From an uncultured Acidobacteriota bacterium (lineage in GTDB: Bacteria > Acidobacteriota > Thermoanaerobaculia > Multivoradales > JAHEKO01), in NCBI GenBank assembly GCA_963713825.1, contig CAVQNG010000003.1:1696001-1760000 (forward strand): a stretch of 64,000 bases of DNA, read 5' to 3'. The translations under genes and the position numbers were made by a program. Each line of letters starts with the position of its first letter. Position 1 is the first letter of the stretch. The notes below the pieces were generated by a model. The model saw nothing but the letters and a program-made list of their open reading frames with translations. It was not told the DNA's origin and ran no database searches. Below, one piece after another: positions 4,793 to 34,561 of the stretch.

Positions 4793-4801
4793 AGGCTCGA
4801 A

Positions 4802-4829
4802 GTCCTGGGGCTTGGCTCCTGGGTCCTGA
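4802..4829 (+). repeat. Heptamer tandem repeat (GTCCTGG-like x4)
   Basis: gtcctgg ggcttgg ctcctgg gtcctga; similar runs at 4926-4953, 10869-10896, 26765-26792 and reversed at about 34473-34500. Confidence 0.8.
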
Positions 4830-4982
4830 GTTTGTGATACGGCCGGCCCTCGGGCCGGTCGTGTCCTTCTGGCAAGTGTCGTGACCGCTTTCGAGTGGAG
4901 GTCCGTCCGGGTGGCCCGTGACAACGTCCTGGGACTTGGGGCCTGGGTCCTGGGCCCAACTCAGATGATTTTAGGTCTCTGC

Positions 4983-5062
4983 AGGGTCCGACGTGGGGCC
5001 CCCAGGGGGCTATCCTCCCTTCCACAGTAACCAACCCCCTGGAGGTCTCCACGCCGAACCCT
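4983..5062. repeat. Repeat family B copy 1 (80-bp palindromic hairpin)
   Basis: AGGGTCCGACGTGGGGCCCCCAGGGGG-loop-CCCCCTGGAGGTCTCCACGCCGAACCCT; close copies elsewhere in the window. Confidence 0.9.
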
Positions 5063-5134
5063 GCACGACTGTCCGAACATCGGGCCAACGCTAGGCCCTT
5101 GCGCCCCTGGGTCCTGCTGCCCACTCCGGTGCTA

Positions 5135-5297
5135 AGAGGTCCGTCTGGGTGGTTCGACAGGGGGCGCCGAGTCGAGCGCAGCGCAAGGACCTTGATAGTG
5201 GCTCGGAAGTTGGGGCGCGATGACGAGACGAGGTGGCGGCCCCCCGTTGCAGTCTGAGTAGCCGACGCCGTCCGCCTGCGGACCACCCAGGCGGGCC
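5135..5297 (+). mobile_element. Repeat family A copy 1 (about 165-bp MITE-like element with about 26-bp imperfect TIRs)
   Basis: Five full copies in the window; no conserved ORF seen; terminal inverted repeats. Confidence 0.8.
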
Positions 5298-5333
5298 CCC
5301 ACGAGCAGAGGGTCATCTGTTCAGGACCCAGGA

Positions 5334-5383
5334 CCCAAGCCCTCAAAGACTGGCCGGGAGGTACGCCCGGACACTTCAATCCC
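5334..5383 (+). repeat. Repeat family C unit
   Basis: CCCAAGCCCTCAAAGA-variable hairpin-CTTCAATCCC. Confidence 0.75.
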
Positions 5384-5392
5384 AACCCGGCG

Positions 5393-8468: not shown

Positions 8469-10850
8469 ATGATCGGGGAGACCCTCGCTCGCTACAAGAT
8501 TGTGGACCAGCTCGGGGTTGGTGGAATGGGAGTGGTCTATCTGGCCGAGGACACGGACCTCGACCGTAAGGTAGCGCTCAAGATGCTGCCGGCCGAGATG
8601 GCCGGGGACCCGGAGCGCTTGGAACGGTTTCGCCGTGAAGCGAAGGCCGTAGCCGCACTGAATCACCCCAACATCGTCACCATTTACAGCATCGAAGAGA
8701 GCGCTGGAACCCAGTTCCTCACCATGGAGCACGTCGATGGGGAGAGCCTGGATCAGATGCTGCCGCCCACAGGGATGCCGCTGTCGAAGGTGTTCGACAT
8801 TGCGGTACCCCTGGCCGACGCGTTGGCGACGGCCCATGAGCGAGGCATCGTCCACCGGGATCTCAAGCCGGCCAATATCATGGTGAACAAGGAAGGCCGC
8901 GTGAAGGTTTTGGACTTCGGGCTGGCCAAACTGACCCAGGACGACGCCCCTGAAGGAGCCGAAGGGGATCTGACTCAGATTCCGACCCGTATCGCCACCC
9001 TGACCGGCGAAGGGATGGTGATGGGCACAGCCCCGTACATGTCGCCCGAGCAAATCGAAGGTCGGGCTATGGACCACCGAACCGACATCTTCTCGCTCGG
9101 GGTCCTACTTTACGAACTGGCTACAGGACGCCGTCCCTTCGACAGCGACAATTCTGCCGGTTTGGTCTCGAGCATTTTGCGCGATACCCCGAGCTCGGTG
9201 ACGGACATCAATCCAGGGCTGCCGCGACACCTGGCACGAATCGTCCAGCACTGTCTGGAGAAGGATCCCGAGGCGCGCTACCAATCAGCCAAGGATGTGA
9301 GGAACGAGCTCAAGAGCCTGCGCCGTGAGGTCGATTCGGGTACGGTCACGACAGGCAGCGGTATCTCGCCAGCCGAGCCGCCGCTGGGTGAGCTGCGGAA
9401 GAAGTCGGGCTTGGGACTTTGGATCGGACTTGCAGCTGCCGCGGTATTGATCCTGCTGATCGGCTGGTGGGTGGGGCGTGGTGGCGGAACCGACGAAGCG
9501 ACGTCGGGTGATGTAGCTGACCGGGCCGCCCCAGTACCGGTGGCAGCACAGTCGGAGGTGCCTTCGGTGGCGATTCTGCCGTTCAAGAACCTGAGCGCAG
9601 ACCCCGACAACGAGTACTTCGCTGACGGTCTCACTGAAGAGTTGATTGGTGCGCTCGCCAAGGTCGATGGCCTGCGCATACCAGCCCGCAGCTCGGTATT
9701 TGCCCTCAAAGGGAGCACCCTCAGCGTGCAGGAGATCGGCGAGCGTTTAGGTGTCGACAACGTTCTGGAGGGCGGCGTTCGCAAGGCTGGCAATCAATTG
9801 CGCATCAGCGCCCAACTGATCAAGGTGGCGGACGGTTTCAACCTCTGGTCCGAGACCTACGACCGGGAGCTCGAGGACGTCTTCCTGATTCAGGATGAGA
9901 TTGCCACCAGCATCGGGGAAGCCTTGCAGCTGACGCTGGCGCCGGGGGGCGATAGGCTCGTACAGGCCGGGCGTAGCACCGACATTCGCGGCTACGACTT
10001 CTATCTTCGAGGACGGGGCTACTTTCGCCGCCGCACCCGTGATGACATCGAGTCGGCGCGCCAGATGTTCATCAAGGCCATCGAGATCGACCCGGAGTAC
10101 GCACCGGCCTATGCCGGCCTGGCCGACACCTACACGGAGTTCTGGCGCAACTACGAGAGTACCGATGAGAACCTGCAGCAGGCGGACCAGGCAAGCCTCA
10201 AGGCGGTTGAGATGGATCCCGACCTGGCAGAGGCACGCGCCGCCAGAGGGTACGCCCTGGGGCAGCAAAGGAAGTACGACGAGGCCAGGCAGGAGTTCGA
10301 GACGGCAATCAGTCTGAACCCCAAGCTCTTCGAGGCCTACTACTACTACGGCACTGTCGCATTTGCCCAGGGAGAGCTCAAGCGGGCCGGCGAGATGTTC
10401 GAGATGGCAACGGAGGTGGCGCCGGACGACATCAGGGCTCTGCAGCTCTTGCCTCAGATCTACCGCAGTCTTGGCAGGGAAGACGAAGTTCGAGAGGCTA
10501 GCGAGCGCCGGCTGGCACTCGCTGAGAGGCTGCTGGAGCTCGATCCGGACGACGTCCAGACACTCCTCTATGGGGCCAATGCACTGGCCACGCTCGGGGA
10601 GCGGGAGCGCAGCTTGGAATGGGCGGCACGGGTACTGGAAGTCGACACCGATGACGCTCTGGTGCTGTACAACATTGCCTGTTTCTACTCACTTGCCGGG
10701 GAAGTCAAGCCGGCGCTCGAAGCGCTCGAGCGATCCTACGAGGCCGGTCTGGCGGATCCGGAGTGGATGGAGCAGGACAGCGATCTCGACAACCTGCGCG
10801 AAGAGGCCCGCTACCAGGCCTTGGTCGAGCGCATGGAAGCCCACGGATAG
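8469..10850 (+). CDS. Hanks-type Ser/Thr kinase with TM, TolB-like N domain and TPR repeats
   Basis: LGVGGMGVVY, VALK, HRDLKPAN, DFG, GTAPYMSPEQ; SVAILPF.NLS..DNEYFADG; TPRs. Confidence 0.92.
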   Translation: MIGETLARYKIVDQLGVGGMGVVYLAEDTDLDRKVALKMLPAEMAGDPERLERFRREAKAVAALNHPNIVTIYSIEESAGTQFLTMEHVDGESLDQMLPPTGMPLSKVFDIAVPLADALATAHERGIVHRDLKPANIMVNKEGRVKVLDFGLAKLTQDDAPEGAEGDLTQIPTRIATLTGEGMVMGTAPYMSPEQIEGRAMDHRTDIFSLGVLLYELATGRRPFDSDNSAGLVSSILRDTPSSVTDINPGLPRHLARIVQHCLEKDPEARYQSAKDVRNELKSLRREVDSGTVTTGSGISPAEPPLGELRKKSGLGLWIGLAAAAVLILLIGWWVGRGGGTDEATSGDVADRAAPVPVAAQSEVPSVAILPFKNLSADPDNEYFADGLTEELIGALAKVDGLRIPARSSVFALKGSTLSVQEIGERLGVDNVLEGGVRKAGNQLRISAQLIKVADGFNLWSETYDRELEDVFLIQDEIATSIGEALQLTLAPGGDRLVQAGRSTDIRGYDFYLRGRGYFRRRTRDDIESARQMFIKAIEIDPEYAPAYAGLADTYTEFWRNYESTDENLQQADQASLKAVEMDPDLAEARAARGYALGQQRKYDEARQEFETAISLNPKLFEAYYYYGTVAFAQGELKRAGEMFEMATEVAPDDIRALQLLPQIYRSLGREDEVREASERRLALAERLLELDPDDVQTLLYGANALATLGERERSLEWAARVLEVDTDDALVLYNIACFYSLAGEVKPALEALERSYEAGLADPEWMEQDSDLDNLREEARYQALVERMEAHG

Positions 10851-10917
10851 CTCCCCTCCTGATCGCCCGACCTGGGACTCGGGACCTGGATCTTGGGCAG
10901 TTGAACCCTCTTCTCGT

Positions 10918-11082
10918 AGAGGCCCGTCCGGGTGGTCCGCAGGCGGACGGCGTCAGCTACTCAGACTGCAGTGGGGGGCCGCCACCTCGTCTCGTCTTCG
11001 CGCCCCATCTCCTGTGCTCTATCAAGGACCTTGCGCTGCGCTCGACTCGGCGCCCCCTGTCGAACCACCCGAACGAGCCTCT
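10918..11082 (-). mobile_element. Repeat family A copy 2
   Basis: Reverse-complement match to 5135-5297; ends AGAGGCCCGTCCGGGTGGTCCG and CGAACCACCCGAACGAGCCTCT. Confidence 0.8.
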
Positions 11083-11114
11083 TTTCACCGGTAGAGCCAG
11101 ACGATCACCCTTCG

Positions 11115-11144
11115 TGTAGGGGAGAGGCTTGCCCCCTCCCGCGG
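11115..11144 (+). repeat. GTAG-type REP-like palindrome
   Basis: TGTAGGGGAGAGGCTTGCCCCCTCCCGCGG; one mismatch to 12738-12767. Confidence 0.75.
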
Positions 11145-11245: not shown

Positions 11246-11249
11246 CTCC

Positions 11250-12887
11250 ATGACGAGATTCCTGCCGAGTTGGATGCACGAACCTCCGGAGCTGGAGCAC
11301 GAGGCCTTTGGACCCGTCGAGCACCGACAAGCTCTCCTGGTCAACCCTTTCTACGCCAAGGACCCTTGCGGCAGTTTCGGCAAGCACGTTCTGACCCCTA
11401 GCCTGGCGCTGACCAGCATCGCTGCCGCGACGCCGCCCCATTGGCGGGTGACCTACTGGGACGAGAACCTGTTGCAGGGCCCGCCACCTGGTCGTCCGAT
11501 TCCGCAGCTCGTCGGAATCACCGTCCATTTGACCTTTGCCGATCGCGCCTATCAAATTGCTCGCTACTATCGCGATCGAGGCTCGAAGGTGGTGCTGGGG
11601 GGGCTGCACATCCAGAGCTGCTCAGAGGAGGCCCTGGCTCATGCTGATGCGGTTGCGATCGGAGAAGGGGTTCAGCTTTGGCCTCGAATCGTCGCAGACC
11701 TGGAGCGCGGAGAGCTGAAGAAGGTCTATGAGGGCAGCTATCAGTCGCCCTACCAGTCCGATCCGCCGCCGCGTCGCGACCTCATACCACGACGGTCTTT
11801 TCTAACTACCGGCAGCCTGATTGCCACTCGTGGATGCCACAACCGGTGCGGGTTCTGTTATCTCGCGACGGCAGGAACGCATATGCCGTATCAGTTGCGA
11901 AACGTCGAGGACATTGTCGCGGAGATCCAGGCTTGTGGCGAACCGTATGTGGTTTTTGTCGACAACAACCTCGGCTCGCGACGAGACTATCTGCTGCGTC
12001 TATGTGAGGCTATTCGACCGCTCGAGATCATTTGGAGTGCCGCCGTCACGATTGATGTCACTGATGATCCCGCCCTGATCCAGGCCATGGCCCTGGCTGG
12101 TTGCACAGGCGTCTTCGTGGGCTTCGAATCGCTGGGGATGGAGAATCTGACCGCTGCCCGAAAACGGACCCCAGACCCGAGGGACTATGGCCGTCGAGTT
12201 CGGATCTTGCACGATTCTGGGATCCAGGTGAACGGCAGCTTCGTTTTCGGATTCGATGGCGATGGCCCGCGGGTGTTCGACAGCACCCTCCGGTGGATCG
12301 AAGAGAACCGGCTCGAGTGCGCCACCTTTCATATCCTCACCCCTTACCCGGGTACTCCGCTGTTCCGAAGGCTCGAGGCTGAGGGCCGCCTTTTGCATCG
12401 GGACTGGAATCTCTACGACACGGCGCATGTGGTCTTCCGACCTCAGGGAATGAGTGTCGATCAGCTACAAGAGGGCTACGACACCTGCTATCGACAACTG
12501 TTCTCGCATCGGTCGATTTGGCTGCGGCGACCGGACGACTGGCGGGCCACCCCGTCCTACCTGGCGGGTAGCTACCTCTACAAGCGCAGCAATCGCTTGT
12601 GGAGCTTTCTGATCCGCAGGCGGCTCGTTCACCAGGCGTGGCAGCCTCTCATCGAGCTGTCCCGCCGGCGCCATCTGCGATTTCGACGGCGACTGATGTC
12701 GGAGGCGGTTCCCCTACGTCCTGTGGGCCCGCCCGAATGTAGGGGAGGGGCTTGCCCCCTCCCGCGGGAGCCCGCAAGGGACTCCCATACATTGCCGACG
12801 CCGTCCCCTTGCGAACCACTGGGACAGACCTTCACAGGTTTGTCGAGCTTTGGTCGAGCGACGACTACGAATGGTGGTAGCCGCTGA
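11250..12887 (+). CDS. B12-binding-domain radical SAM protein
   Basis: RGCHNRCGFC (CxxxCxxC); VVLGGLH cobalamin-type domain; GFES; LTPYPGTPL; last ~50 aa derive from repeats. Confidence 0.88.
   Translation: MTRFLPSWMHEPPELEHEAFGPVEHRQALLVNPFYAKDPCGSFGKHVLTPSLALTSIAAATPPHWRVTYWDENLLQGPPPGRPIPQLVGITVHLTFADRAYQIARYYRDRGSKVVLGGLHIQSCSEEALAHADAVAIGEGVQLWPRIVADLERGELKKVYEGSYQSPYQSDPPPRRDLIPRRSFLTTGSLIATRGCHNRCGFCYLATAGTHMPYQLRNVEDIVAEIQACGEPYVVFVDNNLGSRRDYLLRLCEAIRPLEIIWSAAVTIDVTDDPALIQAMALAGCTGVFVGFESLGMENLTAARKRTPDPRDYGRRVRILHDSGIQVNGSFVFGFDGDGPRVFDSTLRWIEENRLECATFHILTPYPGTPLFRRLEAEGRLLHRDWNLYDTAHVVFRPQGMSVDQLQEGYDTCYRQLFSHRSIWLRRPDDWRATPSYLAGSYLYKRSNRLWSFLIRRRLVHQAWQPLIELSRRRHLRFRRRLMSEAVPLRPVGPPECRGGACPLPREPARDSHTLPTPSPCEPLGQTFTGLSSFGRATTTNGGSR
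12738..12791. repeat. Inverted REP doublet inside the 3' end of the radical SAM ORF
   Basis: TGTAGGGGAGGGGCTTGCCCCCTCCC followed by the inverted partner GGGAGCCCGCAAGGGACTCCCATACA. Confidence 0.7.
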
Positions 12888-13281: not shown

Positions 13282-13327
13282 CGATTCCTCCTGCCCTAGT
13301 TTCGACTGGGGCTATTGTAGGCCAAAT

Positions 13328-14842: not shown

Positions 14843-14861
14843 GTTTGGGCAGGGCCGGAGC

Positions 14862-15875: not shown

Positions 15876-15900
15876 CGCCGACTCTCTGTTCCGTTCGGGC

Positions 15901-17987: not shown

Positions 17988-19586
<1,599 letters not shown>

Positions 19587-19612
19587 TGGCCCGGACTTGG
19601 GTAGGCTCCTTC

Positions 19613-21274: not shown

Positions 21275-21343
21275 GGTTCCCTCCTGTCTGGCTTCCTACA
21301 AGTCTACAGACTTCGGTAAGACGGTGCAGGGCGGAGGATGGCA

Positions 21344-21712: not shown

Positions 21713-21921
21713 CTGACTACCCCTTCGAGTCTCGCACCGTTCGAGCCAATGAGGCAATATCCTGTGAGGTCCGCTCGGGCACCGATCAGGCCTTCAGGCC
21801 TTGAGGCAGTATGGCATTAGGAAGTAGGGGCGTCGGGGCCTAGGGGGTGGTTCCTTGAAAGGAGCCTCGGTACTTTCAGGCTCTCTCAGAGCCAAAAAGC
21901 GATGAACAGTCCCCGTCATTG

Positions 21922-22016
21922 CCCCACTGCCTCAAAGGTGGGCCGGAGGGACGACGGACTTTTCAACCTCCAAGCCCCCAAAGGTCGGCCGGGAGCCACG
22001 ACCGGACGCCTCAACC
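21922..22016 (+). repeat. Repeat family C, two tandem units
   Basis: CACTGCCTCAAAG-hairpin-TTCAACC then CCAAGCCCCCAAAG-hairpin-CCTCAACC. Confidence 0.7.
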
Positions 22017-22904
22017 TTCAATCTTCTTGTACCAATCGGCGAGACCGGCACCGATTCCGTGGGGGTTGTCTTCTTGCACGTAGTGGATGCCCTTGCCGAT
22101 GTCCACGCCCTCGATATTGGGCAGGTTGGCGAGCAGCTTGTCGGCAAGTGGGCGAGGAATCAGACCGCCCGGAGTTGCATAGAACAAGAGCTTCGGCAGA
22201 TGGGTCTTCCCCAGCCATTCCGCATAGCTCTCCACGGCTGCCTGAACGTCGCCAGGGTCACCGTCGATGGGGATCTCCCGGGGCCACTGGCGCACCGGGA
22301 GTCGACTGGCAATTGTGGGGAAGGGCTCTGCGTAGTGGGCCATTTCCTCAGCGGTGAGTGTTCGCGCTGTGGCTTTCGGCAATAACCTCTGAATGAAGAC
22401 ATTCCCCACGGAGATCATCAACCAACCCACTCCCGATGTCCGAAAGAGCTTGAACCCCATCTTGTAGTCGGGCGGGAAGTCGCTCCAGCGTGATGGCTGG
22501 ACGATGGCCTCCATGAAGGCTACTCCCTTCACATTTGCCTCATGGCGGCAGGCGTAGTGAAACCCCAGGCCCGAGCCCCAGTCGTGAATCACCAGAGTCA
22601 CGTTCTTGAGGTCGAGAGCCTCGATGAAGCCCTCGAGGTACTTCGAATGGTCGAAGAATCGGTAGGGGATGTCCGGCTTGTCGGATCGGCCCATGCCGAT
22701 GAGATCGGGCGCGATAGCCCGAGCCACGGGAGTGACGTAGGGGATGATGTTGCGCCACAAATAGGACGAGGTCGGATTGCCGTGCAGAAACAGAACGGGA
22801 TCCCCCTCCCCCTCGTCGATGTAGTGCATCTTCGAGCCGAGAACCTCTACGTACTTGGACTCGAACGGGAACTCGGCAGAGATCGGTTGCTCAGAAGTCA
22901 TCAT
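22011..22904 (-). CDS. dhaA: Haloalkane dehalogenase (HLD-II, DhaA-like)
   Basis: HGNPTSSYLWRN, APDLIGMG.SDKP, IHDWGS nucleophile, FMEA, HYVQED. Confidence 0.9.
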   Translation of the reverse strand: MMTSEQPISAEFPFESKYVEVLGSKMHYIDEGEGDPVLFLHGNPTSSYLWRNIIPYVTPVARAIAPDLIGMGRSDKPDIPYRFFDHSKYLEGFIEALDLKNVTLVIHDWGSGLGFHYACRHEANVKGVAFMEAIVQPSRWSDFPPDYKMGFKLFRTSGVGWLMISVGNVFIQRLLPKATARTLTAEEMAHYAEPFPTIASRLPVRQWPREIPIDGDPGDVQAAVESYAEWLGKTHLPKLLFYATPGGLIPRPLADKLLANLPNIEGVDIGKGIHYVQEDNPHGIGAGLADWYKKIEG

Positions 22905-22980
22905 CAGCTCCTCGTGTGGCGGCCCGGTTCGACTTACCCGATTGGTTTGGGAAGCAGTATACCCAGCGCCGTTGTCGACA

Positions 22981-23060
22981 AGGGTTCGACGTGGTGCCCC
23001 CAGGGGGCTATCCTCCCTTCCGCTGCAAGAACCCCCATGGAGGTCCCCACGCCAAACCCT
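22981..23060. repeat. Repeat family B copy 2
   Basis: Match to 4983-5062. Confidence 0.9.
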
Positions 23061-23177
23061 AGACCGGAATTGTCGAGAGTGGGATCGACCAAGTGGTCTC
23101 CTGAGTCTGCGGCCTCACCCGTGCATACCCCGCCGGTTCAAGTGACCCCTTGTCTAATTTTGCACCGTCGGTTCCAG

Positions 23178-23340
23178 GAGGTTCGTTCGGGTGGTTTGCA
23201 GGGGGCGCCGAGTCGAGCGCAGCGCCAGGTCCTTGACAGGTCACAGGAGATGGGGCGCGATGACGAGACGAGGTGACGGCCAGCCCGTCATAGTCTGAGT
23301 AGCCGTCGCCGTCCGCCAGCGAGCCACCCGGACGGACCTC
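23178..23340 (+). mobile_element. Repeat family A copy 3
   Basis: Match to 5135-5297. Confidence 0.8.
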
Positions 23341-23465
23341 TTCGAGATACCTGTCCCATGCCGAGGGCATCTTTCCGCGGTAGACTACGCGAGCCCGGTG
23401 TCTGGCCGGGTGATTCGAAATTCGCACCCACCTTCTGTGCCCATTGCACCCTTTGGAGGTTGAGA

Positions 23466-26400: not shown

Positions 26401-26759
26401 TCAACGGCTATGCCGCCTCCGGTGGTGACGCCCTGCCGTACTACTTCCGGAAGCGCGGGCTGGGCCAGATCATCGGCACCACGACCTGGGGCGGCCTGAT
26501 CGGTCTGTCGGGCAATCCGATGCTGGTCGATGGTGGCGGCGTGCTCTATCCGACCTTCCGGCTCTTCGACACCGAAGGCCAGTGGGCGGTGGAGAACGAG
26601 GGTGTGGCGCCGGACATCGAGGTCTGGGATCTTTCCGAGGCCATCGCCCAGGGTGGCGACCCGTCGATCGAGAAGGCGGTGGAGGTGCTGCTCCAGGAGC
26701 TCGAGAGCTACAGCGGCGACCCGGAAAGCCCGACTCCGCCTGACATGGGCGGAGACTGA
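23466..26759 (+). CDS. Tricorn protease homolog (S41), exported
   Basis: LLRYPSI..VFVYGGDLW; beta-propellers; GEL.AGHTY; PDZ; GYIHLP, D.RYNGGG, ASGGD; start position uncertain. Confidence 0.92.
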   Translation: MTHSCPSSFSFTCWIRRITLGLALVALLPLSAVAADGEARLLRYPSIHEDFVVFVYGGDLWRVPVEGGRAFRLTSHEGTELTPKISPDGEWVAFSGEYSGSRQVYVMPSDGGTPKQLTFYNDVGSMPPRGGFDYWVQGWCPDGKILVRMNRTPWGQRPGLYYLVDPAGGLEERLPIQVGGSASCSPDGTSLAFTYFDREFRTWKRHMGGRNQDIWTFDLDAMASERLTDWAGSDNFPMWHGDTIFFTSDREHTLNIFAYDKATGATRKITDFDEYDVLWPSLGPDAIVFMNGGWLYRLDLATEQVEKIPVTITSGLPSTLPRWEDVSDNIDVSDVSPGGSRAIFEARGDLYTVPAKDGATRNLTDTQGVRESAPRWSPDGRWIAYYSDVTGEMELYVREQDGSADPRQLTQGGSEWRFPAEWSPDSKKLAYSDSDRNLNVIDVASGAVTVADTDSQGFIDTYRWSPDSKWLAFEKGHPETTLPGLAIYSLASGEVQMLGDGLTVDFAPAWGSGGKYLFFLSNRDYNLNFSDFEFNYVYDNSTRVFAVALVPEADALFPLKSDEVEVDSDDEESAGNGDGNGDEDEKSAPEVAVALEGLTARTLAVPGVTAGNYGNLSAVEGALLYLKIPDDGPPALVRFDLEEREEKEVVTGVADYRLAARGEKVLYQSGGKWSIADAKPDSKGDELDLSDLRMRLDPRAEWAQMFHEDWRIGRDWFYDSEMHGIGWDQMKERYGALVPYISTRADLDFIFGEMVGELEAGHTYVQSGEDQGVDRVEGGMLGAELEADSSGRYRIAKIFAGENWDDGYRSPLTELGVDVSVGDYLLAIDGVELTTEQNPYQLLEGKGGKQVALTVNSEPSKAGSRTETVKTITSERNLRYLDWVMSRAALVNELSGGRIGYIHLPNTAGEGNRMLQKLFYSQSQKDGLIIDDRYNGGGFIPDRMIEMLSRTTLSFWTRRGVEANRTPGFAHDGPKVMLINGYAASGGDALPYYFRKRGLGQIIGTTTWGGLIGLSGNPMLVDGGGVLYPTFRLFDTEGQWAVENEGVAPDIEVWDLSEAIAQGGDPSIEKAVEVLLQELESYSGDPESPTPPDMGGD

Positions 26760-26812
26760 ACAAGGTCCTGGGGCTTGGGACCTGGGTCCTGGGCATAGGA
26801 CCGTGATCTCGT

Positions 26813-26977
26813 AGAGGCCCGTCCGGGTGGTTCGCAGGCGGACGGCGGCGGCAACTCAGACTGCGGCGGGGGGCCGCGACCTCGTCGCGTCATCGCGCCC
26901 CGTCTCCTGTGTCCTATCAAGAACCTTGCGCCGCGCTCGACTCGGCGCCCCCTGTCGAACCACCCGAACGAACCTCT
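26813..26977 (-). mobile_element. Repeat family A copy 4
   Basis: Match to 10918-11082. Confidence 0.8.
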
Positions 26978-26985
26978 GGCACCAA

Positions 26986-27033
26986 TAGGGGGATAGGGGC
27001 CTAGGGCAGTAGGGGCTTAGGGGCGTAGGGGGC
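26986..27033 (+). repeat. G-rich octamer tandem (TAGGGGNN x6)
   Basis: taggggga taggggcc tagggcag taggggct taggggcg tagggggc. Confidence 0.85.
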
Positions 27034-27164
27034 GGCGAGTCAGCCGATTGAATCTTGATGTGTTTCGAAGGTGGTAGATCGGGCCATGGGTCTCCCTCGT
27101 CGGAGGGGCATGGTCGGGTGAGGCCGCAGACGAGGGAGATCCCTGGTTCGATCGGCCGTCTCAT

Positions 27165-27212
27165 CCCCAAGCCCTCAAAGAACACCCGGCGGAGAGCCGG
27201 GTGCCTCAACCC
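27165..27212 (+). repeat. Repeat family C unit
   Basis: CCCAAGCCCTCAAAGA ACACCCGGCGGAGAGCCGGGTG CCTCAACC. Confidence 0.75.
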
Positions 27213-27411
27213 TCGAGGCTTCGGGTCATTTGACCGAAGCCGCTCAATGCTGGTACAACTTCCCTCAAGTACCTGTCCTAGGCAGATGCAGTTGGGCCCT
27301 CGATGAAGGGCTAGATGCGCCCTTTGGCCATCCATGGACGTCCCGTGGAAGGGGCAGGTTCTCAAACGATGGAAGAAGCTCGAAGACGAAATCTCTAGAG
27401 AGGAAGTACTG

Positions 27412-28827
27412 ATGCCGACAGTAAAGACCCTGAGTGGTGGTGAAGCGACGATCGACGACGCAATGATCCAGGCCCTGTCCGAGAGCCTTCATGGAGATGT
27501 CGTAACAGCGGCGAGTCCGAGTTACGACGAGGTCCGGGAGATCTGGAACGCCATGATCGACCGGCGCCCCGGGGTCATCGTGCGCTGTGCCAGCGCGGAA
27601 GATGTCGTGAAGGCTGTCAACCTTGCCCGTGAGAACGAATTGCTCGTCACTGTGCGCGGAGCTGGCCACAATATTGCCGGCAGCTCGATTGCCGATGGCG
27701 CCTTGATGATCGATTTGTCGGGCATGAAGGCGGTAGCGGTCGATGTAGCGAGCAAGACGGTGACGGCCCAGCCCGGAGTCACTCTCGGCGAGTTGGACGC
27801 CGCGACACAGGAGCATGGTCTGGCCGTCTCGGTCGGCATCAACTCGACGACTGGCGTGGCGGGGCTGACCCTGGGAGGAGGATTCGGCTGGCTGAGTCGG
27901 AAGTATGGGATGACAATCGACAATCTGATTTCTGCCGATGTCGTGACGGCCAGTGGCGATCTGGTCAAGGCGAGCGCGGACAGCAACCCCGATCTCTTCT
28001 GGGCCATCCGAGGGGGTGGTGGCAACTTCGGTGTCGTGACCTCGTTCGAGTATCAGGCGCAACTTGTCGGTCCCGAGATCCTGTCCGGTCTGATCGTTCA
28101 CCCAGGTAGCGAGGCCCGAGCCTGCTTCGAGTTCTATCGAGACTTCACGGCCCAGGCACCGGAAGAGCTCACCACATGGGTCGTCATGCGGAAAGCACCG
28201 CCACTACCGTTCCTTCCCGAGGAGGTTCACGGTACCGACGTCCTGATCTTTGCGGTGATGTACACCGGAGATATGGCATCGGGGGAGAAAGCAGTCCAGG
28301 CTCTGCGCGATTTCGGCAGTCCGATCGCCGACGTGATCGGCCCCCACCCATTCGCGGGTTGGCAGCAGGCGTTCGATCCACTGCTCACGCCTGGCCTCCG
28401 GAACTACTGGAAGTCGCACAACTTCAGCGGCCTGAGCGATGAGTTGATCGACGTCCTCGTGGCCGCCGCCAGTAACATGCCGTCGCCGCACTCGGAAGTC
28501 TTCATGGCGCAGCTCGGTGGTGCTCAGAGCCGGATCGATCCCACCGCGACCGCCTACTGGCCCCGAGACTCGGCATTCACCATGAACGTCCATACGCGGT
28601 GGGAAACTGCCGCTGAGGATGAGCAGTGCGTAGCATGGGCGCGGCAGCTCTTCAACGACACCGAACCCCACGCAACGGGCGGTGTCTACGTGAACTTCAT
28701 GCCGGAAGACGAAGCGGACCGCGTCGGCAAGGCCTATGGTGGCAACTACGACCGCCTGGCTTCGATCAAGAAGGAGTGGGACCCGACGAATCTGTTTCGG
28801 GTGAATCACAACATCAAGCCCGAGTAG
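27412..28827 (+). CDS. FAD-linked oxidase (BBE/6-hydroxy-D-nicotine oxidase family)
   Basis: RGAGHN covalent FAD His, TGVAGLTLGGG.G, LFWAIRGGGGNFG, YVNF, K..WDP.NLFR. Confidence 0.9.
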   Translation: MPTVKTLSGGEATIDDAMIQALSESLHGDVVTAASPSYDEVREIWNAMIDRRPGVIVRCASAEDVVKAVNLARENELLVTVRGAGHNIAGSSIADGALMIDLSGMKAVAVDVASKTVTAQPGVTLGELDAATQEHGLAVSVGINSTTGVAGLTLGGGFGWLSRKYGMTIDNLISADVVTASGDLVKASADSNPDLFWAIRGGGGNFGVVTSFEYQAQLVGPEILSGLIVHPGSEARACFEFYRDFTAQAPEELTTWVVMRKAPPLPFLPEEVHGTDVLIFAVMYTGDMASGEKAVQALRDFGSPIADVIGPHPFAGWQQAFDPLLTPGLRNYWKSHNFSGLSDELIDVLVAAASNMPSPHSEVFMAQLGGAQSRIDPTATAYWPRDSAFTMNVHTRWETAAEDEQCVAWARQLFNDTEPHATGGVYVNFMPEDEADRVGKAYGGNYDRLASIKKEWDPTNLFRVNHNIKPE

Positions 28828-28835: not shown

Positions 28836-28933
28836 TGGGAGTGAGGCGAACGGACTCTGTCCGTTCGATCTTTGAGGGCTTGGGGATTGAGGCAGCCGAG
28901 CGTACCTTTCAGCCGGTCTTTGAGGCAGTGAGG
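28836..28933 (-). repeat. Repeat family C, two tandem units
   Basis: Reverse complement reads CACTGCCTCAAAGA-hairpin-CCTCAATCCCCAAGCCCTCAAAGA-hairpin-CCTCACTCCC. Confidence 0.75.
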
Positions 28934-29028
28934 TTGTAGCGGCCGGGCCTGTGCCGGCCGAATCCCAGAGGGAGCCACCGACTCGTGGCTCCCATACTAT
29001 TTGGTGGATCTACAGTGGAGATTCTCGA

Positions 29029-29586
29029 ATGCGACCAAGGATACTGAGTACCCTTACCCCTGCCTTGCTTCTGGGATTGGTGACCTTTCCGGCGGCAGCC
29101 GAGGAAGAGATGATGCAGTCGCCCCGGGTCGAGGTGGGCGAGGAGGCGCCACCTTTCACCCTTCCTACAACCGAGGGCCAGACCCTCAGCCCCGAGAGCT
29201 TGCGCGGGGACAAACCCCTGGTTCTGACGTTCTTTCGGGGAACGTGGTGACCGTTCTGTCGCCAGCAGCTCGGCGAGCTGCAAGCAGGTTTGGATGAAAT
29301 GCGACAACGGGGTGCCGAGCTCTGGGTGGTGAGCCCCGATGACGCGAAGAAGCTCAAAAAGTTCCGACAGCAGGAGGGGCTGGATTTCCCGGTTTTAGTC
29401 GACACGGACCTGGCGGTCAGCACCAGCTACGGCCTGATCAACGAAGCGAACCCCGTTGTGCCTCACCCGACCACCCTGATCATCGACAAGCAGGGCGTGA
29501 TTCGCTATCTGCGGGTGGACGTCGATTACAAAGTCCGTCCCTCCGTCGCAGAGCTGCTCGAAGCCCTCGATCAGCTGGGCCAGTGA
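29029..29586 (+). CDS. Peroxiredoxin-like AhpC/TSA protein with in-frame UGA (probable selenoprotein, UxxC)
   Basis: Two track ORFs share one frame; FFRGTW-TGA(29248-29250)-PFCRQQL; APPFTL upstream and VSPD, FPVLVD, PTTLIIDKQG downstream complete one domain. Confidence 0.85.
29265..29281 (+). promoter_or_regulatory. Candidate bacterial SECIS hairpin
   Basis: GCAGCTC-GGC-GAGCTGC perfect inverted repeat starting 14 nt after the UGA, with G in the apical loop. Confidence 0.65.
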
Positions 29587-29600
29587 AACGCAGGGGATTT

Positions 29601-29678
29601 GGGTCCGACGTGGGGCCCCCAGGAGGCTATCCTCCCTTCCGCTGCAAGAACCCCCTGGAGGTCCCCACGCCGAACCCT
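29601..29678. repeat. Repeat family B copy 3
   Basis: Match to 4983-5062. Confidence 0.9.
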
Positions 29679-29781
29679 CGGCAACTGGAGAGACCTCGGA
29701 CGCGGCTTTGCACCTCTGTGATCTTGGAGATCGCTCTCTAAGCCGTTACGCCCCTATGCCCCTACTGCCTCTAACGGCGCC

Positions 29782-29863
29782 AGGGGTTCGTTCGGGTGAT
29801 TCGACAGGGGGGCTATCCTCCCTTCCGCTGCAAGAACCCCCTGGAGGTCCCCACGACGAACCT
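29782..29863 (+). repeat. A/B chimeric repeat
   Basis: Family A left end GGTTCGTTCGGGTGATTCGACAGGGGG joined at the shared CAGGGGG to the family B loop and right arm. Confidence 0.8.
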
Positions 29864-29884
29864 CCAAGAGATCTTGGCGATCTG

Positions 29885-29978
29885 CCCAAGCCCTCAAAGA
29901 TCGGCTGGCGCAGGTGCCAGACGCTTCAACCCCCAAGCCCACAAGGATCGGCCGGAGGTACGACGGCCGCCTCAATCC
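29885..29978 (+). repeat. Repeat family C, two tandem units
   Basis: CCCAAGCCCTCAAAGA-hairpin-CTTCAACCCCCAAGCCCACAAGGA-hairpin-CCTCAATCC. Confidence 0.75.
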
Positions 29979-30040
29979 TCATTGCCTTCCCGGGACTCTT
30001 GTCCCGGGAGGGCAGTGACCGCTATCCTGGGCCGACTCGA

Positions 30041-31456
30041 ATGACGCAGCCCGTTACCCTGCCCCTATGGCTTGTGGTCTTGCTGGTCGCCTTCGCGACT
30101 CTGGCGGCCTTGGACTATCTGATCAGGCCGAGCCTGCGATGGGTGGTTCGGCGACGGGTCCGGCGGGTGCTCGAGGATCTCGAGAGTCGCTTTCAGATCC
30201 GCGGGCGACCCTTCAAGCTGACGAAAAGACAGGTCCTGATTGACCGGCTCGTCTACGACCGGGAAGTGGCGGCCGCGGCCGAGCGGCACGCCCGGGAGAC
30301 GGAAATGTGTCCAGAGGAGACGCTGGATCGGGTCCAGCGATACGCCTCCGAGATCGTGCCGGCCTTCAATGCCTACTTCTATTTCAGACTTGGATACGGG
30401 ATCGCACGGTGGTTTGCGCGTTCGCTCTACCGGGTGCGCCTGGGGGTCTCCGATGGAGGAGCGCTGGCGGCCATCGACGAAAGCTCGACAGTGGTCTTCG
30501 TCATCAATCACCGTAGCAACATGGACTACGTCCTGGTCTCCTATCTGGCGGCGGAAAAGGCGGTTCTGAGCTACGCGGTGGGAGAGTGGGCGCGGATTTT
30601 TCCTCTCGAGTCCCTGATCCGATCCATGGGCGCCTACTTCGTGCGGCGTCGGTCGCGCAACGATCTCTATCGCAAGGTACTGCAGCGCTACGTGCAGATG
30701 GCCACGGCGGAAGGAGTGACCCAGGCCGTCTTTCCGGAGGGCGGCCTGAGTCGGGATGGAGGCCTCCAAGAGCCGAAGCTCGGTTTGTTGGACTACATGT
30801 TGCGGGAGTTCGATCCCGAAGGAGAGCGCGATCTGGCGTTCGTGCCGGTGGCTCTCAACTACGACCGGGTCCTGGAGGACCGAACTCTCCTGTTGGACCT
30901 CGATCCCGAGGCCAAGCGCAAGAAAGGCCTATCGGCGATGCAAACGACGGGGCGATTTGTCACTCGACAGCTGCAATTGATGACGCTGGCGAAATGGCAT
31001 CGCTTCGGCTACGCGTGCGTGAACTTCGGCAGCCCCGTCTTCGCCAAGGCCTATCTGGCAGAGCAAGGGGTGGATCTGCGAACTCTCGAAAAGGAAGAGC
31101 GCTTCGCGCGCGTTGGGGAGTTGGCAGACCACCTGATGGGCGAGGTTGGCCGGATCGTCCCCGTCACCCCCGTGGCGCTGGTGGCCACGGTCCTTTTGCA
31201 CGAGCCGGGACGGCGCATCAGCGACCTGGAGCTCAAAGCCGAGGTGCAGCGACGCATCGATCAATTCGAAGCCTCGGGACACCACGTCTATGTTCCGCGC
31301 CAGGACAGGGAATACGCTATCGATGTGGGGCTGCGCATGCTGGTGTTGCGGAAGGTGGTGGAGCGGGACGAAGAAGGCCTGCTGCGTGTGGAGCCTGACG
31401 AGCTCCCGCTGCTACGCTATTACGCGAACTCGATCGCCCATCTGGCAAGCGAGTGA
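30041..31456 (+). CDS. Glycerol-3-phosphate acyltransferase family protein (PlsB-like)
   Basis: NHRSNMD (HxxxxD), GAYFVRR, FPEGGLSRDG, VPVALNYD; N-terminal TM; start reassigned downstream of the repeats. Confidence 0.82.
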   Translation: MTQPVTLPLWLVVLLVAFATLAALDYLIRPSLRWVVRRRVRRVLEDLESRFQIRGRPFKLTKRQVLIDRLVYDREVAAAAERHARETEMCPEETLDRVQRYASEIVPAFNAYFYFRLGYGIARWFARSLYRVRLGVSDGGALAAIDESSTVVFVINHRSNMDYVLVSYLAAEKAVLSYAVGEWARIFPLESLIRSMGAYFVRRRSRNDLYRKVLQRYVQMATAEGVTQAVFPEGGLSRDGGLQEPKLGLLDYMLREFDPEGERDLAFVPVALNYDRVLEDRTLLLDLDPEAKRKKGLSAMQTTGRFVTRQLQLMTLAKWHRFGYACVNFGSPVFAKAYLAEQGVDLRTLEKEERFARVGELADHLMGEVGRIVPVTPVALVATVLLHEPGRRISDLELKAEVQRRIDQFEASGHHVYVPRQDREYAIDVGLRMLVLRKVVERDEEGLLRVEPDELPLLRYYANSIAHLASE

Positions 31457-31589
31457 GCTCGGTGTCCAACCCACCCGTTGGGGTGTTGCACCACCGAGGC
31501 TCAAGCTGTAGATGATGGGTTAGCAACCAAGTTCTGGGGCTGCTGGCTCTTGCCGGGCCGGTAAGCTGCCTGCCATTGGGGGAACCACC

Positions 31590-33371
31590 ATGGACTATCC
31601 ATCGCTGTACCAGATGTTCCAGGAAGTCAGCACCATCAACGGATCGAAGCTAGCGTTCAAGCACAAACGGAAAGGCAATTGGTTCGATGTCACCTGGACC
31701 GAAGCCAAGGAGACGGTGCAAAGAGTCTCGAAGAGCCTGATCGCTCTGAAGATCGAGAAGGCAAGCAAGGCGAGCATCCTGTCGCAGACGCGGCTGGAGT
31801 GGGTCCTGTGTGACTTCGGCATCGTCAGCTGCGGTGTCGTGACCGTCGGGATCTACCATTCGAACCTGCCCGAGGGCTGCGCCTACATCCTCGATCACAG
31901 CGATTCGGAGATCGTCTTCGTGGAAGATGCCGAGCAACTCGCCAAGGTCCTGGAGGTTCGAGAGCGGCTGCCCAACTTGCGGCACATCGTCATCTACGAA
32001 GGGCCCTCCGATGCAAAGCGAGGGGTGATGAGCTGGGAGGATTTCCTGGACCAGGGCGCCGATGTCTCCGAAGAGGAGGTAGCGCAGAGGGGCGAAGAGC
32101 TCGGTCCGGAAGATCTGGCCTCGATCGTCTATACCTCCGGCACTACGGGTGAGCCGAAGGGGGCCATGATCAGCCATGGAAACCTGGTTTTCACCAGTTG
32201 GTCAGCGGGAGAGTCCCTCTACATGGAGCCATTCTTCAGCACTCTCCTATTTCTACCTCTGGCGCATGTCTTCGCGCGGCTCATCGTCTACGTCTGCCTG
32301 CGAAAGGCCGTGCCCGTGGCATTCGCCGAGAGCTTCAACACAGTCGTACAGAATCTGCAGGAAATCCGTCCGCACTTCATCGCCAGCGTTCCCCGGGTCT
32401 ACGAGAAGGCCTACGACAAGATCGTCTCGAATGCGGCTGACGCCGGCGGCATCAAGCTGAAGCTCTTCTACTGGGCTTTGGGCGTCGGCCGCAAGGTTGG
32501 CGAGCTGCAGCAGAAGAAGCAACCCATCCCAGGCGGGCTGGCGCTCCAGCACCGCATTGCCCACAAGCTCGTACTGCACAAAGTCGTCGAGATCTTCGGC
32601 GGGCGTATGGAGTGGTCGGTGTCTGGCGCAGCGCCGCTCAACAAGTCCATTGCCGAGTTCTTCCATGCCTGTGGTGTTCTGATTCTCGAAGGGATCGGCA
32701 TGACCGAGAACACCTCCTTCACCCATGTGAACCGGTTCGACAACTACAAATTCGGCTCCGTCGGCCAGCTCGGTCCCGAGGTCGAGCACCTGATCGCCAC
32801 AGATGGTGAGCTGCTGACGCGCGGCGCCAACACGATGCAGGGCTATTTCAAGAACCCCGAGGCAACCGCGGAGACCATTGACCAGGAGGGTTGGCTCCAC
32901 ACCGGTGACATCGGGGAAGTCGATACGGAAGGGTTCCTACGGATTACCGATCGCAAGAAGGACTTGATCATCACGGCCGGTGGCAAGAACGTCGCGCCGC
33001 AGCACGTCGAGCAGGTCTTGCGTACATCCCACTACATCGGGCAGGTGGTTGCCATCGGCGACCGGAAGAAGTTCCTGTCGGCCATCATAACCCTCGATCC
33101 CGACACAGTGCCGGAGTGGGCTGCACAGAACGATCTCGGGGATTTGACCCTGGAGGAACTGGCCGTGCACCCCAAGGTGCACGAGCTGATCGAGATGGAG
33201 ATCGAGCAGCGTAACAAGAGCTTGGCCTCTTACGAGGGCATCAAGAAGTTCGAGATTCTGCCGCGGGACTTCTCAATCGAAGGCGGCGAGCTGACGCCGA
33301 CACTCAAGGTCAAGCGCAAAGCCGTCGTCGAGAAGTATAAGGACGAGATCGAATCGCTATACGAGACCTGA
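31590..33371 (+). CDS. Long-chain fatty acid--CoA ligase
   Basis: YTSGTTGEPKG, LPLAHVF, EGIGMTE, WLHTGDIG, DRKKDLI, TPTLKVKR. Confidence 0.92.
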   Translation: MDYPSLYQMFQEVSTINGSKLAFKHKRKGNWFDVTWTEAKETVQRVSKSLIALKIEKASKASILSQTRLEWVLCDFGIVSCGVVTVGIYHSNLPEGCAYILDHSDSEIVFVEDAEQLAKVLEVRERLPNLRHIVIYEGPSDAKRGVMSWEDFLDQGADVSEEEVAQRGEELGPEDLASIVYTSGTTGEPKGAMISHGNLVFTSWSAGESLYMEPFFSTLLFLPLAHVFARLIVYVCLRKAVPVAFAESFNTVVQNLQEIRPHFIASVPRVYEKAYDKIVSNAADAGGIKLKLFYWALGVGRKVGELQQKKQPIPGGLALQHRIAHKLVLHKVVEIFGGRMEWSVSGAAPLNKSIAEFFHACGVLILEGIGMTENTSFTHVNRFDNYKFGSVGQLGPEVEHLIATDGELLTRGANTMQGYFKNPEATAETIDQEGWLHTGDIGEVDTEGFLRITDRKKDLIITAGGKNVAPQHVEQVLRTSHYIGQVVAIGDRKKFLSAIITLDPDTVPEWAAQNDLGDLTLEELAVHPKVHELIEMEIEQRNKSLASYEGIKKFEILPRDFSIEGGELTPTLKVKRKAVVEKYKDEIESLYET

Positions 33372-33398
33372 GCACACAGCGGCTAGGCCACACAAAGC

Positions 33399-33986
33399 TC
33401 AGTCTTCCTCTGGCTGCGGCTCCGAGGGCTCTTCGCTGTCTTCTAGGGGAGGAGCGCAATCCCCATCTCTCAGGGTGGTGCGGGCAGCCTCGAGGTACTC
33501 ACCGAGTCCCTTCTCCGCCAGATCCTTGAGTAGGAGCAGGGGTGTACCGTAGTCCTCCTGAAGCACGGCCAACTCTTCCTTGAGACGCCGACAGAGGGGG
33601 GAATCATCGCCCTCTTCGCGGCAGATTCCGACGATCTCGGTGAGGCCGGGGCCTTCGAAGCCGTGGAGTGGCTGCTCTGCAGGGCTGGTCTGAAAAGGTT
33701 GGAGACGACCGGACTCCCGCTCCTCGGGCTCGAGGTAACGGCGAAAGATCAGGTCGTCCTTCGATCGCAGCAGAGCGTCGCCGTCACTATCCCTGACGAC
33801 GATGACCTCCTCTGGGCGATCAGCCAGTCGGACCTCCAGAATCTCCATGCCGTCGATCGGGCGATAGAGGACCTTGTTTCCGTTGTGTTCGAAGAAGCAC
33901 CCCTCATCGGCGACGGCGAGCGTGGAAGAACAGAGGCCCGCAACAGCCAAGATCAAGACAGAGACGATAGAGGGCGATTCAGTCAT
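33399..33986 (-). CDS. Hypothetical secreted protein
   Basis: Fills the gap; signal-peptide-like N-terminus (AVA-D); acidic; four Cys in the mature part. Confidence 0.6.
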   Translation of the reverse strand: MTESPSIVSVLILAVAGLCSSTLAVADEGCFFEHNGNKVLYRPIDGMEILEVRLADRPEEVIVVRDSDGDALLRSKDDLIFRRYLEPEERESGRLQPFQTSPAEQPLHGFEGPGLTEIVGICREEGDDSPLCRRLKEELAVLQEDYGTPLLLLKDLAEKGLGEYLEAARTTLRDGDCAPPLEDSEEPSEPQPEED

Positions 33987-34048
33987 CGGACTCACAGGTC
34001 GCGAGCCAAGATTCTACCTGGATCCTGGGCATAGTACCGATGTCTCAT

Positions 34049-34214
34049 AGAGGTCCGTCCGGGTGGTTCGCAGGCGGACGGCGGCGGCTACTCAGACTCT
34101 GGCGGGCTGGCCGCCACCTCGTCTCGTCGTCGCGCCCCATCTCCTGTGCCCTATCAGGGACCTTGCGCTGCGCTCGACTCGGCGCCCCCTGTCGAACCAC
34201 CCGAACGAACCTCT
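34049..34214 (-). mobile_element. Repeat family A copy 5
   Basis: Match to 10918-11082. Confidence 0.8.
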
Positions 34215-34313
34215 GGCACTACTGATGGCAGTAGGGGCTTAGGGGAGTAGAGGCTTCGGGTTGGCTTATATTTGTGCCCTGGAAGTCAGGACCTGTCTCA
34301 CCAACGGTTGTAC

Positions 34314-34393
34314 AGAGTTCGGCGTGGGGACCTCCAGGGGGTTGGTTGCTGTGGAAGGGAGAATAGCCCCCTGGGGGGCCCATGTCGGACCCT
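34314..34393. repeat. Repeat family B copy (reverse orientation)
   Basis: Reverse complement of 4983-5062. Confidence 0.9.
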
Positions 34394-34561
34394 CCCACCA
34401 CAGTCATTGGAGCGGGACTCAAGCCCCCTGCGAACCATCCGGACTGACCTCTACGGGAAGAGGGTTAGACACGCAAGACCCAGGTCCCGAGTCCCAGGAC
34501 AAGCGAGAGCCGGGACCGCCCGGTTGGGCGAGCCCAGCTTGGATTGGCCAGGTGGTCGAGC

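Follow-up and report, generated by a model that had tools for sequence, protein, structure and literature searches.

The first 34.5 kb of a 64,000-nucleotide (nt) stretch of an uncultured Acidobacteriota bacterium (Thermoanaerobaculia; GenBank assembly GCA_963713825.1, contig CAVQNG010000003.1, positions 1,696,001 to 1,760,000; the whole stretch is called the window below) contain a composite system of intergenic repeats. Its modules, named A, C, D, E and H, and its runs of heptamers and octamers have a defined anatomy and order; A has a defined fold with a bias to one strand, and the arrangements differ between related genomes. We interpret the repeats as small hairpin elements of the Thermoanaerobaculia, non-coding and non-autonomous, which form a lineage-specific superfamily, resemble MITEs (miniature transposable elements with inverted repeats) and repetitive extragenic palindromic (REP) sequences and would be mobilised in trans, with a Y1/HUH enzyme favoured; the probability given to this reading is about 0.55. 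The broader assignment to a non-autonomous MITE/REP-like superfamily is made with good confidence. Identification of the mobilising enzyme as a Y1/HUH transposase of the RAYT (REP-associated tyrosine transposase) or 'TIRYT' kind, a class deduced from features of the elements, is tentative.

Extent of the repeats

BLAST comparison of the window with itself and with 16 related loci (numbered with the prefix L) located repeated DNA at nine places of the window only: 4802-5386, 10871-11144, 12726-12836, 21915-22021, 22969-23366, 26765-27217, 28842-28948, 29601-29987 and 34016-34501. Pairwise matches had E-values from 1e-10 to 1e-80. The first-pass annotation had described eight spacers as mosaics of shared modules that are absent beyond about 34500. 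All eight were recovered, the site at 12726-12836 had been missed, and no repeated DNA was found in the remainder of the window past 34501. The elements total about 2.6 kb of the first 34.5 kb (sum of the BLAST segments). Spacers in the first half of the window are long because the elements lie in them, and gene packing is tighter past 34.5 kb.

Short tandem runs were scanned for in about 290 kb, consisting of the window and the related loci. At cut-offs of at least 15 of 18 matches for heptamer runs and at least 17 of 21 for octamer runs, 16 heptamer runs were found against 1.0 in shuffled sequences, and 18 octamer runs against 0. Runs of both kinds were also called by Tandem Repeats Finder at the positions reported in the first-pass annotation.

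An assembly artefact or chance similarity, the former of which the first-pass annotation had named among the observations that would refute it, is refuted. The modules stand at orthologous positions in independently assembled metagenome-assembled genomes (MAGs), E-values are as low as 1e-80, and the copies differ by 7-16 % and are therefore not collapsed duplicates; the one point in favour of an artefact is that in three of the 15 loci with a true A copy this copy lies within 250 nt of a contig end (L004 62-234, L014 50-240, L015 11689-11796). From this position near contig ends it follows that the repeats fragment short-read assemblies and that copy numbers in MAGs are lower bounds.

Anatomy and order of the modules

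Module A is 164 nt long, from GAGG to CCTC, and in alignments its 29-bp terminal inverted repeats (ends GAGGTYCGTYCGGGTGG) close a three-way fold. C is an 80-nt hairpin with ends (GGGTYCGRCGTGGGG) similar to those of A, and E is a palindromic hairpin element of 135 nt. In D, a GTAG tag with a stem-loop of 8-9 bp occurs twice in inverted order, the tags being outermost; D substitutes for the tip of the third arm of A in one A subfamily, and six of its seven copies lie inside A-type elements. The third arm of this variant ends in GCAA and CUUG loops, tetraloop types that are stable in RNA. H units are 47-50 nt long and composed of a conserved CCCAAGCCCTCAAAG, a G+C-rich hairpin of variable sequence, and CCTCAAYC. 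The heptamer unit is CCCAGGN and the octamer unit GCCCCTAN; in our reading of the printed flanks and the D alignment, the octamer unit, as (G)TAGGGGC, is similar to the head of D. A further period-8 run (TCAGGCCT, 2.8 copies) is located at 21786-21807 just ahead of TAGGGGCN octamers, so that the octamer arrays include diverged unit types. A module called B in the first-pass annotation corresponds with some uncertainty to one of these modules, probably to E (27033-27167) or H.

There were 24 matches to A (five in the window and 19 in the loci) and 13 to C. The parts follow one another in a fixed order, which reads outer A end, C, optional E, octamers, GGTGCCA, A, TACGAGA linker and heptamers, with H arrays outside. 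Around 20 full A copies, a 20-nt TACGAGAAGAGGGTCATCTG-like linker and then CCCAGGN heptamers come after the right end, and the left end is preceded by a GGTGCCA-like joint with GCCCCTAN octamers in front of it; the exception is the A copy of L004, which is flanked by octamers at both ends. The two kinds of junction reported earlier are thus present, a TACGAGAAGAGGG-like linker being found at the right end in about 16 of the 20 full copies and the GGTGCCA-like joint with octamers at the left. All six stringent matches to the linker come directly after an A end. In 11 of 13 cases C and a full A are oriented alike, with C upstream by 58-170 nt; the remaining two C copies adjoin an A-end fragment. 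Random adjacency of the modules, named in advance as an observation that would speak against such a system, was not what the examined loci displayed.

Seven composites, at non-orthologous sites, have an additional right-type A end 45-70 nt outside C; the solo repeat at 4898-4914 is of this type (GAGGTCCGTCCGGGTGG). This long form, of about 385-450 nt, is bounded by inverted right-type ends 385-446 nt apart and sometimes also includes E. As read from the module map, 12 of the 18 octamer runs touch an A end and six occur only with H arrays, and 11 of the 16 heptamer runs touch a right-type A end. The description of a composite, non-coding and non-autonomous system with a grammar of its own holds, given the fixed order and orientation and a window without a transposase. 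The notion of a kit of modules has to be changed in part: both kinds of short run, heptamer and octamer, behave like fixed flanks attached to the ends of A and not like free modules. Variants of the parts do reassort (see below).

No open reading frame (ORF) lies between any pair of A- or C-type ends in the 290 kb, and single-base insertions and deletions between copies exclude a coding potential of A. In form the elements match MITEs, having inverted ends, a size below about 600 nt (164 nt for A, 385-446 nt for the long form) and no ORF. Open frames of 96-169 amino acids run across the repeats at 10763-11119, 22855-23145, 26856-27365, 34261-34599 and in the 5' part of 29708-31456. They have no Pfam match, and homology to L015 begins only at 30041; they are likely to be spurious ORFs or over-extended starts due to the G+C-rich repeats.

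Fold and strand polarity

In the RNAalifold analysis of 19 A copies, the terminal repeats pair in a closing stem of 29 bp, which is joined by a second arm, with a large loop, and a third. On the A(+) strand, 98.3 % of the 950 pair cells of this 50-pair fold are standard pairs, against 35-53 % in slid controls. Compensatory changes occur in three pairs, a number equalled in 7 of 500 shuffles. The mismatches are one-sided: G-U-type mismatches were found at 20 pair positions (136 cells) and A-C-type at two (2 cells; binomial p = 1.2e-4), and among rare variants, those seen in one or two copies, 11 are G-U and two A-C. Whether RNA or DNA parameters are used, A(+) folds more stably in 19 of 19 copies. 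The one-sided mismatches together with the stability of A(+) indicate a single-stranded stage of fixed polarity, be it DNA or RNA.

By folding energy, C is more stable on the strand opposite to A in 11 of 11 cases, and so is H in 41 of 43, which may in part be an effect of G+T composition. Pair counts for C are mixed, with about 9 A-C-type versus 6 G-U-type sites on the (+) strand in our own tally. The orientation of A relative to neighbouring genes is without bias (6/6/5/3 over four classes). A consensus scan of three spacers detected no sigma-70-like promoter and only weak terminator-like sites, at 4806-4828 and 4950-4964. No conserved -10/-35 pattern was present in the left flanks of the 20 full A copies.

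Occurrence in other genomes

The invariant 22-mer of A was used as query for a genome scan, which returned 16 loci in four MAGs. True A copies are contained in 15 of these loci, from three Thermoanaerobaculia/Acidobacteriota MAGs. An origin in a Gloeobacter-like cyanobacterium with STRR heptamers was dismissed because the scan located A solely in these MAGs. The remaining locus, L009, belongs to a MAG labelled Thermotogae and was rejected as an A copy: it has only an exact 22-base match at 3374-3395 within unrelated sequence, without A ends, which is either chance or a tiny fragment. Five additional A copies that miss the exact core were found in the flanks of the loci, so the 22-mer scan undercounts A. 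Copies from different genomes are as similar to each other as copies within a genome (84-93 %).

Rfam 15 yielded no family for the repeats at gathering level, its sole match in the window being a riboswitch at 53413-53510; in E-value mode, the region 4700-34700 gave three chance matches to microRNA models only (E 1.1-1.8). No blastn match to the long form (34016-34506) was obtained in plasmid and phage collections, and no description of these repeats was found in the literature searched. In agreement with the proposal of an undescribed system, the repeat families themselves appear to be undescribed, while their general kind (MITEs, REPs and terminal inverted repeat (TIR) repeats) is known.

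The genes of the window are ordinary housekeeping genes, none of them a transposase. No transposase-like Pfam match was found in the 46 window ORFs or in 136 of the 192 locus ORFs (the other 56 are larger ORFs of L002 and L009-L016), and none of the scanned ORFs matched Y1_Tnp. The ORF 12865-13281 (-), beside the fused D and A fragment, is a member of the globin family (Pfam Globin, E = 2.5e-5) and no nuclease or four-helix-bundle candidate.

Turnover between related genomes

Two loci are syntenic with the window, L002 with 13262-28814 and L015 with 30041-42776. Between the hydrolase and the tricorn-protease genes, the block of C, octamers, A and linker is inverted in the window relative to L002; the breakpoints fall exactly at the element ends, and a target duplication is absent in both genomes. 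Past the tricorn gene, the A of the two genomes agrees in orientation but not in subfamily. Beside the RF-1-domain gene, L002 carries heptamers, an A of the D subfamily, octamers and two H units, and the window carries a 13-nt A-end remnant with GCACC, octamers and two H units; a hairpin-spanning deletion would yield such a remnant. At 33995-34562, L015 has a short A where the window has an oppositely oriented long form, with one end common to both: the right end of the short A with its linker and heptamers is orthologous to the solo end of the window at 34424-34499.

Loci L011 and L012 are approximately 96-97 % identical over 20 kb. Their repeat spacers are distinguished by a single H unit (46 nt), a deletion of 30 nt that removes heptamers plus linker, and a wholly replaced spacer between C and A, despite which C and A themselves are at background identity. 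How far copies of C have diverged is uncorrelated with the divergence of the A linked to them (Mantel r = 0.06, p = 0.38; r = 0.06, -0.01 and -0.07 with 10, 9 and 8 composites, short sequences making this a weak test), and therefore variants of the parts reassort. A composite moving as one unit, for which C and A are expected to diverge together, was set aside on the same values near 0, with the same reservation as to the strength of the test. At the two ends of the 20 A copies no common direct repeat was found that could be a target duplication, and sequences with joint and linker in the absence of A were only chance matches inside genes.

Proposed mobilisation and alternative explanations

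The elements build up in intergenic DNA, mostly beside gene ends. Whole blocks are inverted or re-inserted, deletions that the hairpins would mediate leave solo ends behind, tandem units are gained and lost, and segments are exchanged between copies. According to the favoured reading, the spread of the elements would need an enzyme encoded elsewhere in the genome, which would most likely act on one folded single strand. The lack of target duplications fits Y1/HUH better than DDE enzymes, and Y1/HUH is favoured because of the GTAG dimers nested in A, the likeness of the octamers to the GTAG head, and an Acidobacteria-specific group of TIR-flanked Y1 genes described by Di Nocera et al. 2013 (PMC3733652).

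Several observations weigh against this reading. The 46 window and 136 of 192 locus ORFs scanned include no mobilising enzyme, and no empty site, with octamers, joint, linker and heptamers directly joined, occurs in the 290 kb. Combined with the missing target duplications, these negatives leave the mobilisation in trans that the first-pass annotation proposed at the level of an inference. No clean pair of a filled and an empty site was found, since each of the orthologous spacers compared is occupied by an element in either genome; the differences could therefore come from recombination at fixed sites, with no transposition. The GTAG tag is confined to D, which was never seen free-standing, six of its seven copies being inside A-type elements. 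As C and H favour the strand opposite to A, neither strand of the composite suits all of its parts best. An RNA stage would explain the strand bias of A no less well than a stage of single-stranded DNA, and a 29-bp stem with a three-way junction and 14 % G-U pairs resembles RNA more than it does the short hairpins read by known Y1 transposases. Finally, the loci were retrieved via the core of A, so that C, E and short runs lacking A are visible only in flanks.

Classical MITEs might be considered instead, A, C and the long form being deletion derivatives of a DDE insertion sequence moved by cut-and-paste as double-stranded DNA. Long terminal inverted repeats, small size and the absence of an ORF agree with this, as do nested and hybrid copies and solo ends, and, because the C ends are similar to the A ends, a single enzyme might mobilise any of A, C and the C-A block. 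It is nevertheless unlikely: a target-site duplication is absent at the 20 copies and at the inverted block, a mismatch bias to one strand (20 versus 2 pair positions) is not expected of a double-stranded binding site, the conserved flanks (joint and octamers, linker and heptamers) reach past the inverted repeats, and neither the end pairs of the 290 kb nor Pfam matches of the 46 window and 136 of 192 locus ORFs scanned revealed a parent element.

An improbable alternative is that A (perhaps C and E too) represents a structured RNA gene in many copies or an element acting at the RNA level, with its fold selected in RNA, its copies arising by duplication, recombination or an RNA intermediate, and the heptamer and octamer runs serving as protein-binding or processing sites. 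This would account for 98 % pairing with 14 % G-U on one strand, for a three-way junction with a variable third arm that in the D variant has GCAA and CUUG loops, and for rare variants biased to G-U (11 versus 2). It is opposed by the three scanned spacers without a sigma-70-like promoter, left flanks without a conserved -10/-35 pattern, mixed orientation to neighbouring genes (6/6/5/3), the missing Rfam family match, and the free loss or truncation of copies between relatives.

We regard as quite improbable that the repeats are immobile fossils of one ancient composite dispersed long ago, their present diversity being due to local deletion, slippage and gene conversion. Occupation of each compared orthologous spacer in both genomes would follow from it, and so would copies as similar between as within genomes (84-93 %), the segment replacement directly observed between L011 and L012, and C and A without co-divergence. 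Against it stand the inversion of the C-A block at one site, where the breakpoints coincide exactly with the ends of the elements, and the opposite long form where a relative has a short A, which is hard to obtain by conversion alone; moreover, dispersal to at least 20 unrelated loci required some mechanism once.

A more speculative idea, to which little weight is given, is that A is the working part of an element cycling through one folded single strand and not a decayed transposon end. In one form of it, a structured RNA of about 165 nt with a 29-bp stem and a three-way junction would partner a recombinase or reverse transcriptase encoded elsewhere, and the heptamer and octamer arrays would be docking or target sites from which the fixed grammar results. 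Bacteria would then, if this is true, have a non-autonomous mobile element of a new, RNA-dependent type.

Hairpins at gene 3' ends

At the chosen score, 46 H units in 27 arrays were counted, often as two to three head-to-tail copies, and in many loci H is present far from A. H is no part of the A grammar but a separately distributed hairpin at gene 3' ends. Compensatory changes were found at four of six pairs of its stem. The RNAalifold consensus of H is weak because loop lengths differ, and the hairpin is clear in individual sequences. All 14 arrays situated at most 50 nt from a stop codon put the more stable strand in the mRNA of that gene, where the hairpin is followed by AUCUUUGAGGG. We read H as a separate REP-like family placed directly behind stop codons in one orientation. 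In the mRNA it probably serves as a hairpin at the 3' end, either a terminator or a stabiliser, a role suggested by strand and position. It occurs on both outer sides of A composites because convergent gene ends lie there.

Comparison with known repeat systems

REP sequences and REPINs (REP doublets forming hairpins) with their RAYTs, and TIR repeats, consist, as do the present elements, of short extragenic palindromes that frequently follow genes and are grouped in dimers and tandem clusters. GTAG-tagged REPs are imperfect palindromes of 20-40 nt that carry an unpaired GTAG at one end and commonly form head-to-head dimers. D in particular, with its GTAG tag and head-to-head dimer, the absence of target duplication and the single-strand-specific folding resemble REPs and REPINs. 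Differences are that A, C, E and H have no GTAG (or CGTC) tag and that A, with its 164-nt three-way fold and 29-bp stem, is much larger than a REP; among the ORFs scanned there was no RAYT or TIRYT gene. To our knowledge the fixed heptamer and octamer flanks have no counterpart in REP/RAYT or TIR systems.

Di Nocera et al. 2013 (PMC3733652) describe TIR-flanked Y1 transposase genes, including the Acidobacteria-specific group, with one Acidobacteria species reported to have a matching family of TIR repeats. As defined there, TIR repeats are a family identical to the long inverted repeats flanking a Y1 transposase gene, and some share GGGGWSAS (PMC3733652). When the D copies were compared with this motif, the D half at 11115-11144 was found to contain GGGGAGAG, and the remaining copies read GGGGAGGG. 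The pair of GTAG palindromes of the D arrangement is called an 'HH dimer' in that paper on GTAG-REPs (PMC3733652).

With respect to size, intergenic position, multiple non-coding copies (100-200 nt) and long terminal inverted repeats, the elements are comparable to Correia elements and ERIC sequences. Correia elements of Neisseria and ERIC of enterobacteria are hairpin MITEs with target duplications, have no attached runs of short repeats, and fold into long hairpins when transcribed. In the present elements, by contrast, target duplication was not seen and the mismatches are strand-biased.

In bacterial interspersed mosaic elements (BIMEs) of E. coli, two types of inverted REPs alternate, separated by defined linkers; the BOX elements of pneumococcus have the structure boxA-boxB(n)-boxC. 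Both are, like the present system, mosaic intergenic repeats of a few modules in fixed order with one module in variable tandem number; sequences and architecture are unrelated, and here it is motifs of 7 and 8 nt and the H unit of 47 nt that vary in tandem number. The label 'BIME-like' used earlier can be kept as an analogy only: alternating inverted REPs are absent, H units are arranged head to tail, and A, C and E, which differ from one another, share one orientation. The system works in the manner of REP/REPIN clusters, BIMEs, BOX and hairpin MITEs but cannot be assigned to any of them, as the target duplication that is the mark of DDE MITEs was looked for and not seen, and the GTAG tag occurs in D only. 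Unusual features of the system are the large structured A, the fixed flanks of 7- and 8-nt repeats and the one-strand bias.

Spacers are inflated by the repeats, which also give rise to spurious ORFs and interrupt MAG assemblies in an acidobacterial class that is abundant and uncultured; models of the repeats would improve annotation and binning. The family is a compact case for asking how composites keep their order while parts reassort, and whether elements with long stems are read as single strands. If a Y1/HUH enzyme or RNA partner were found, biology of the REP/RAYT type would be extended to a much larger structured substrate. The H hairpins are candidate 3'-end signals in a phylum in which terminators are poorly known.

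Features of the window

The repeat features are listed in Table 1. The G+C content of the window is 62 %, and no tRNA genes were found in it.

Table 1. Positions of repeat modules and fragments in the window
Feature	Position	Strand	Remarks
Heptamer run	4803..4830	-	CCTGGGN on + strand; just 3' of M3 peptidase gene stop
Solo A-type terminal repeat	4898..4914	+	Right-end type GAGGTCCGTCCGGGTGG; outer end of long form
Heptamer run	4927..4954	-	
C copy 1	4983..5065	+	
A copy 1	5136..5299	+	Linker 5300-5319 adjoins
Heptamer run	5320..5340	+	CCCAGGN
H unit	5334..5383	+	10 nt from 3' end of S9 peptidase gene
Heptamer run	10870..10890	-	
A copy 2	10919..11081	-	nhmmer match 10905-11095 including linker
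Half D (single GTAG-tagged palindrome)	11115..11144	+	Adjoins left end of A copy 2
D fused with A right-end fragment	12726..12836	+	Two inverted GTAG-tagged palindromes
A terminal-repeat remnant	21766..21783	+	13 nt, joined to GCACC; full A at orthologous site of L002
Octamer run	21824..21847	-	TAGGGGCN on + strand
Two tandem H units	21922..22020	+	Abut 3' end of alpha/beta-hydrolase gene
C copy 2	22980..23063	+	
Partial E	23083..23170	+	
A copy 3	23178..23340	+	C-A block inverted versus orthologous spacer of L002
Heptamer run	26766..26793	-	
A copy 4	26814..26976	-	
Octamer run	26985..27032	-	About 6 units
E	27033..27167	-	135 nt
H unit	27165..27214	+	
Two tandem H units	28839..28933	-	12 nt past FAD/BBE oxidase gene stop
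C copy 3	29600..29680	+	
Octamer run	29742..29765	+	GCCCCTAN
A-C hybrid	29783..29862	+	Left-end terminal repeat of A joined to the inner part and right end of C
Two tandem H units	29885..29981	+	
A copy 5	34050..34213	-	Weak heptamer run and linker at 34016-34049
Octamer run	34231..34254	-	
C copy 5	34311..34394	-	
A right-end fragment, linker and heptamer run	34424..34499	+	Fragment 34424-34451, heptamers 34479-34499; orthologous to right end of full, oppositely oriented A in L015

A segment of about 1 kb (39465-40467) is absent from the syntenic L015 (2314-2336). It covers most of the ORF 39446-40573 (-), which has a weak match to the acyltransferase family HGSNAT_cat, and this presence or absence of a gene is unrelated to the repeats.

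An AhpC/TSA-like gene at 29029-29586 (+) has an in-frame TGA at the redox position (29248-29250; FRGTW-TGA-PFC), with a stem-loop a few bases downstream. If the TGA is read as selenocysteine, the frame is open over 185 codons; translation table 11 splits the gene into the ORFs 28951-29250 and 29290-29586. Judged from its sequence, the gene probably encodes a selenoprotein.

The riboswitch at 53413-53510 (-) is of the c-di-GMP-I-GGC type (66 bits, gathering threshold 59) and is located directly upstream of an S8 subtilase gene (50305-53409, -).

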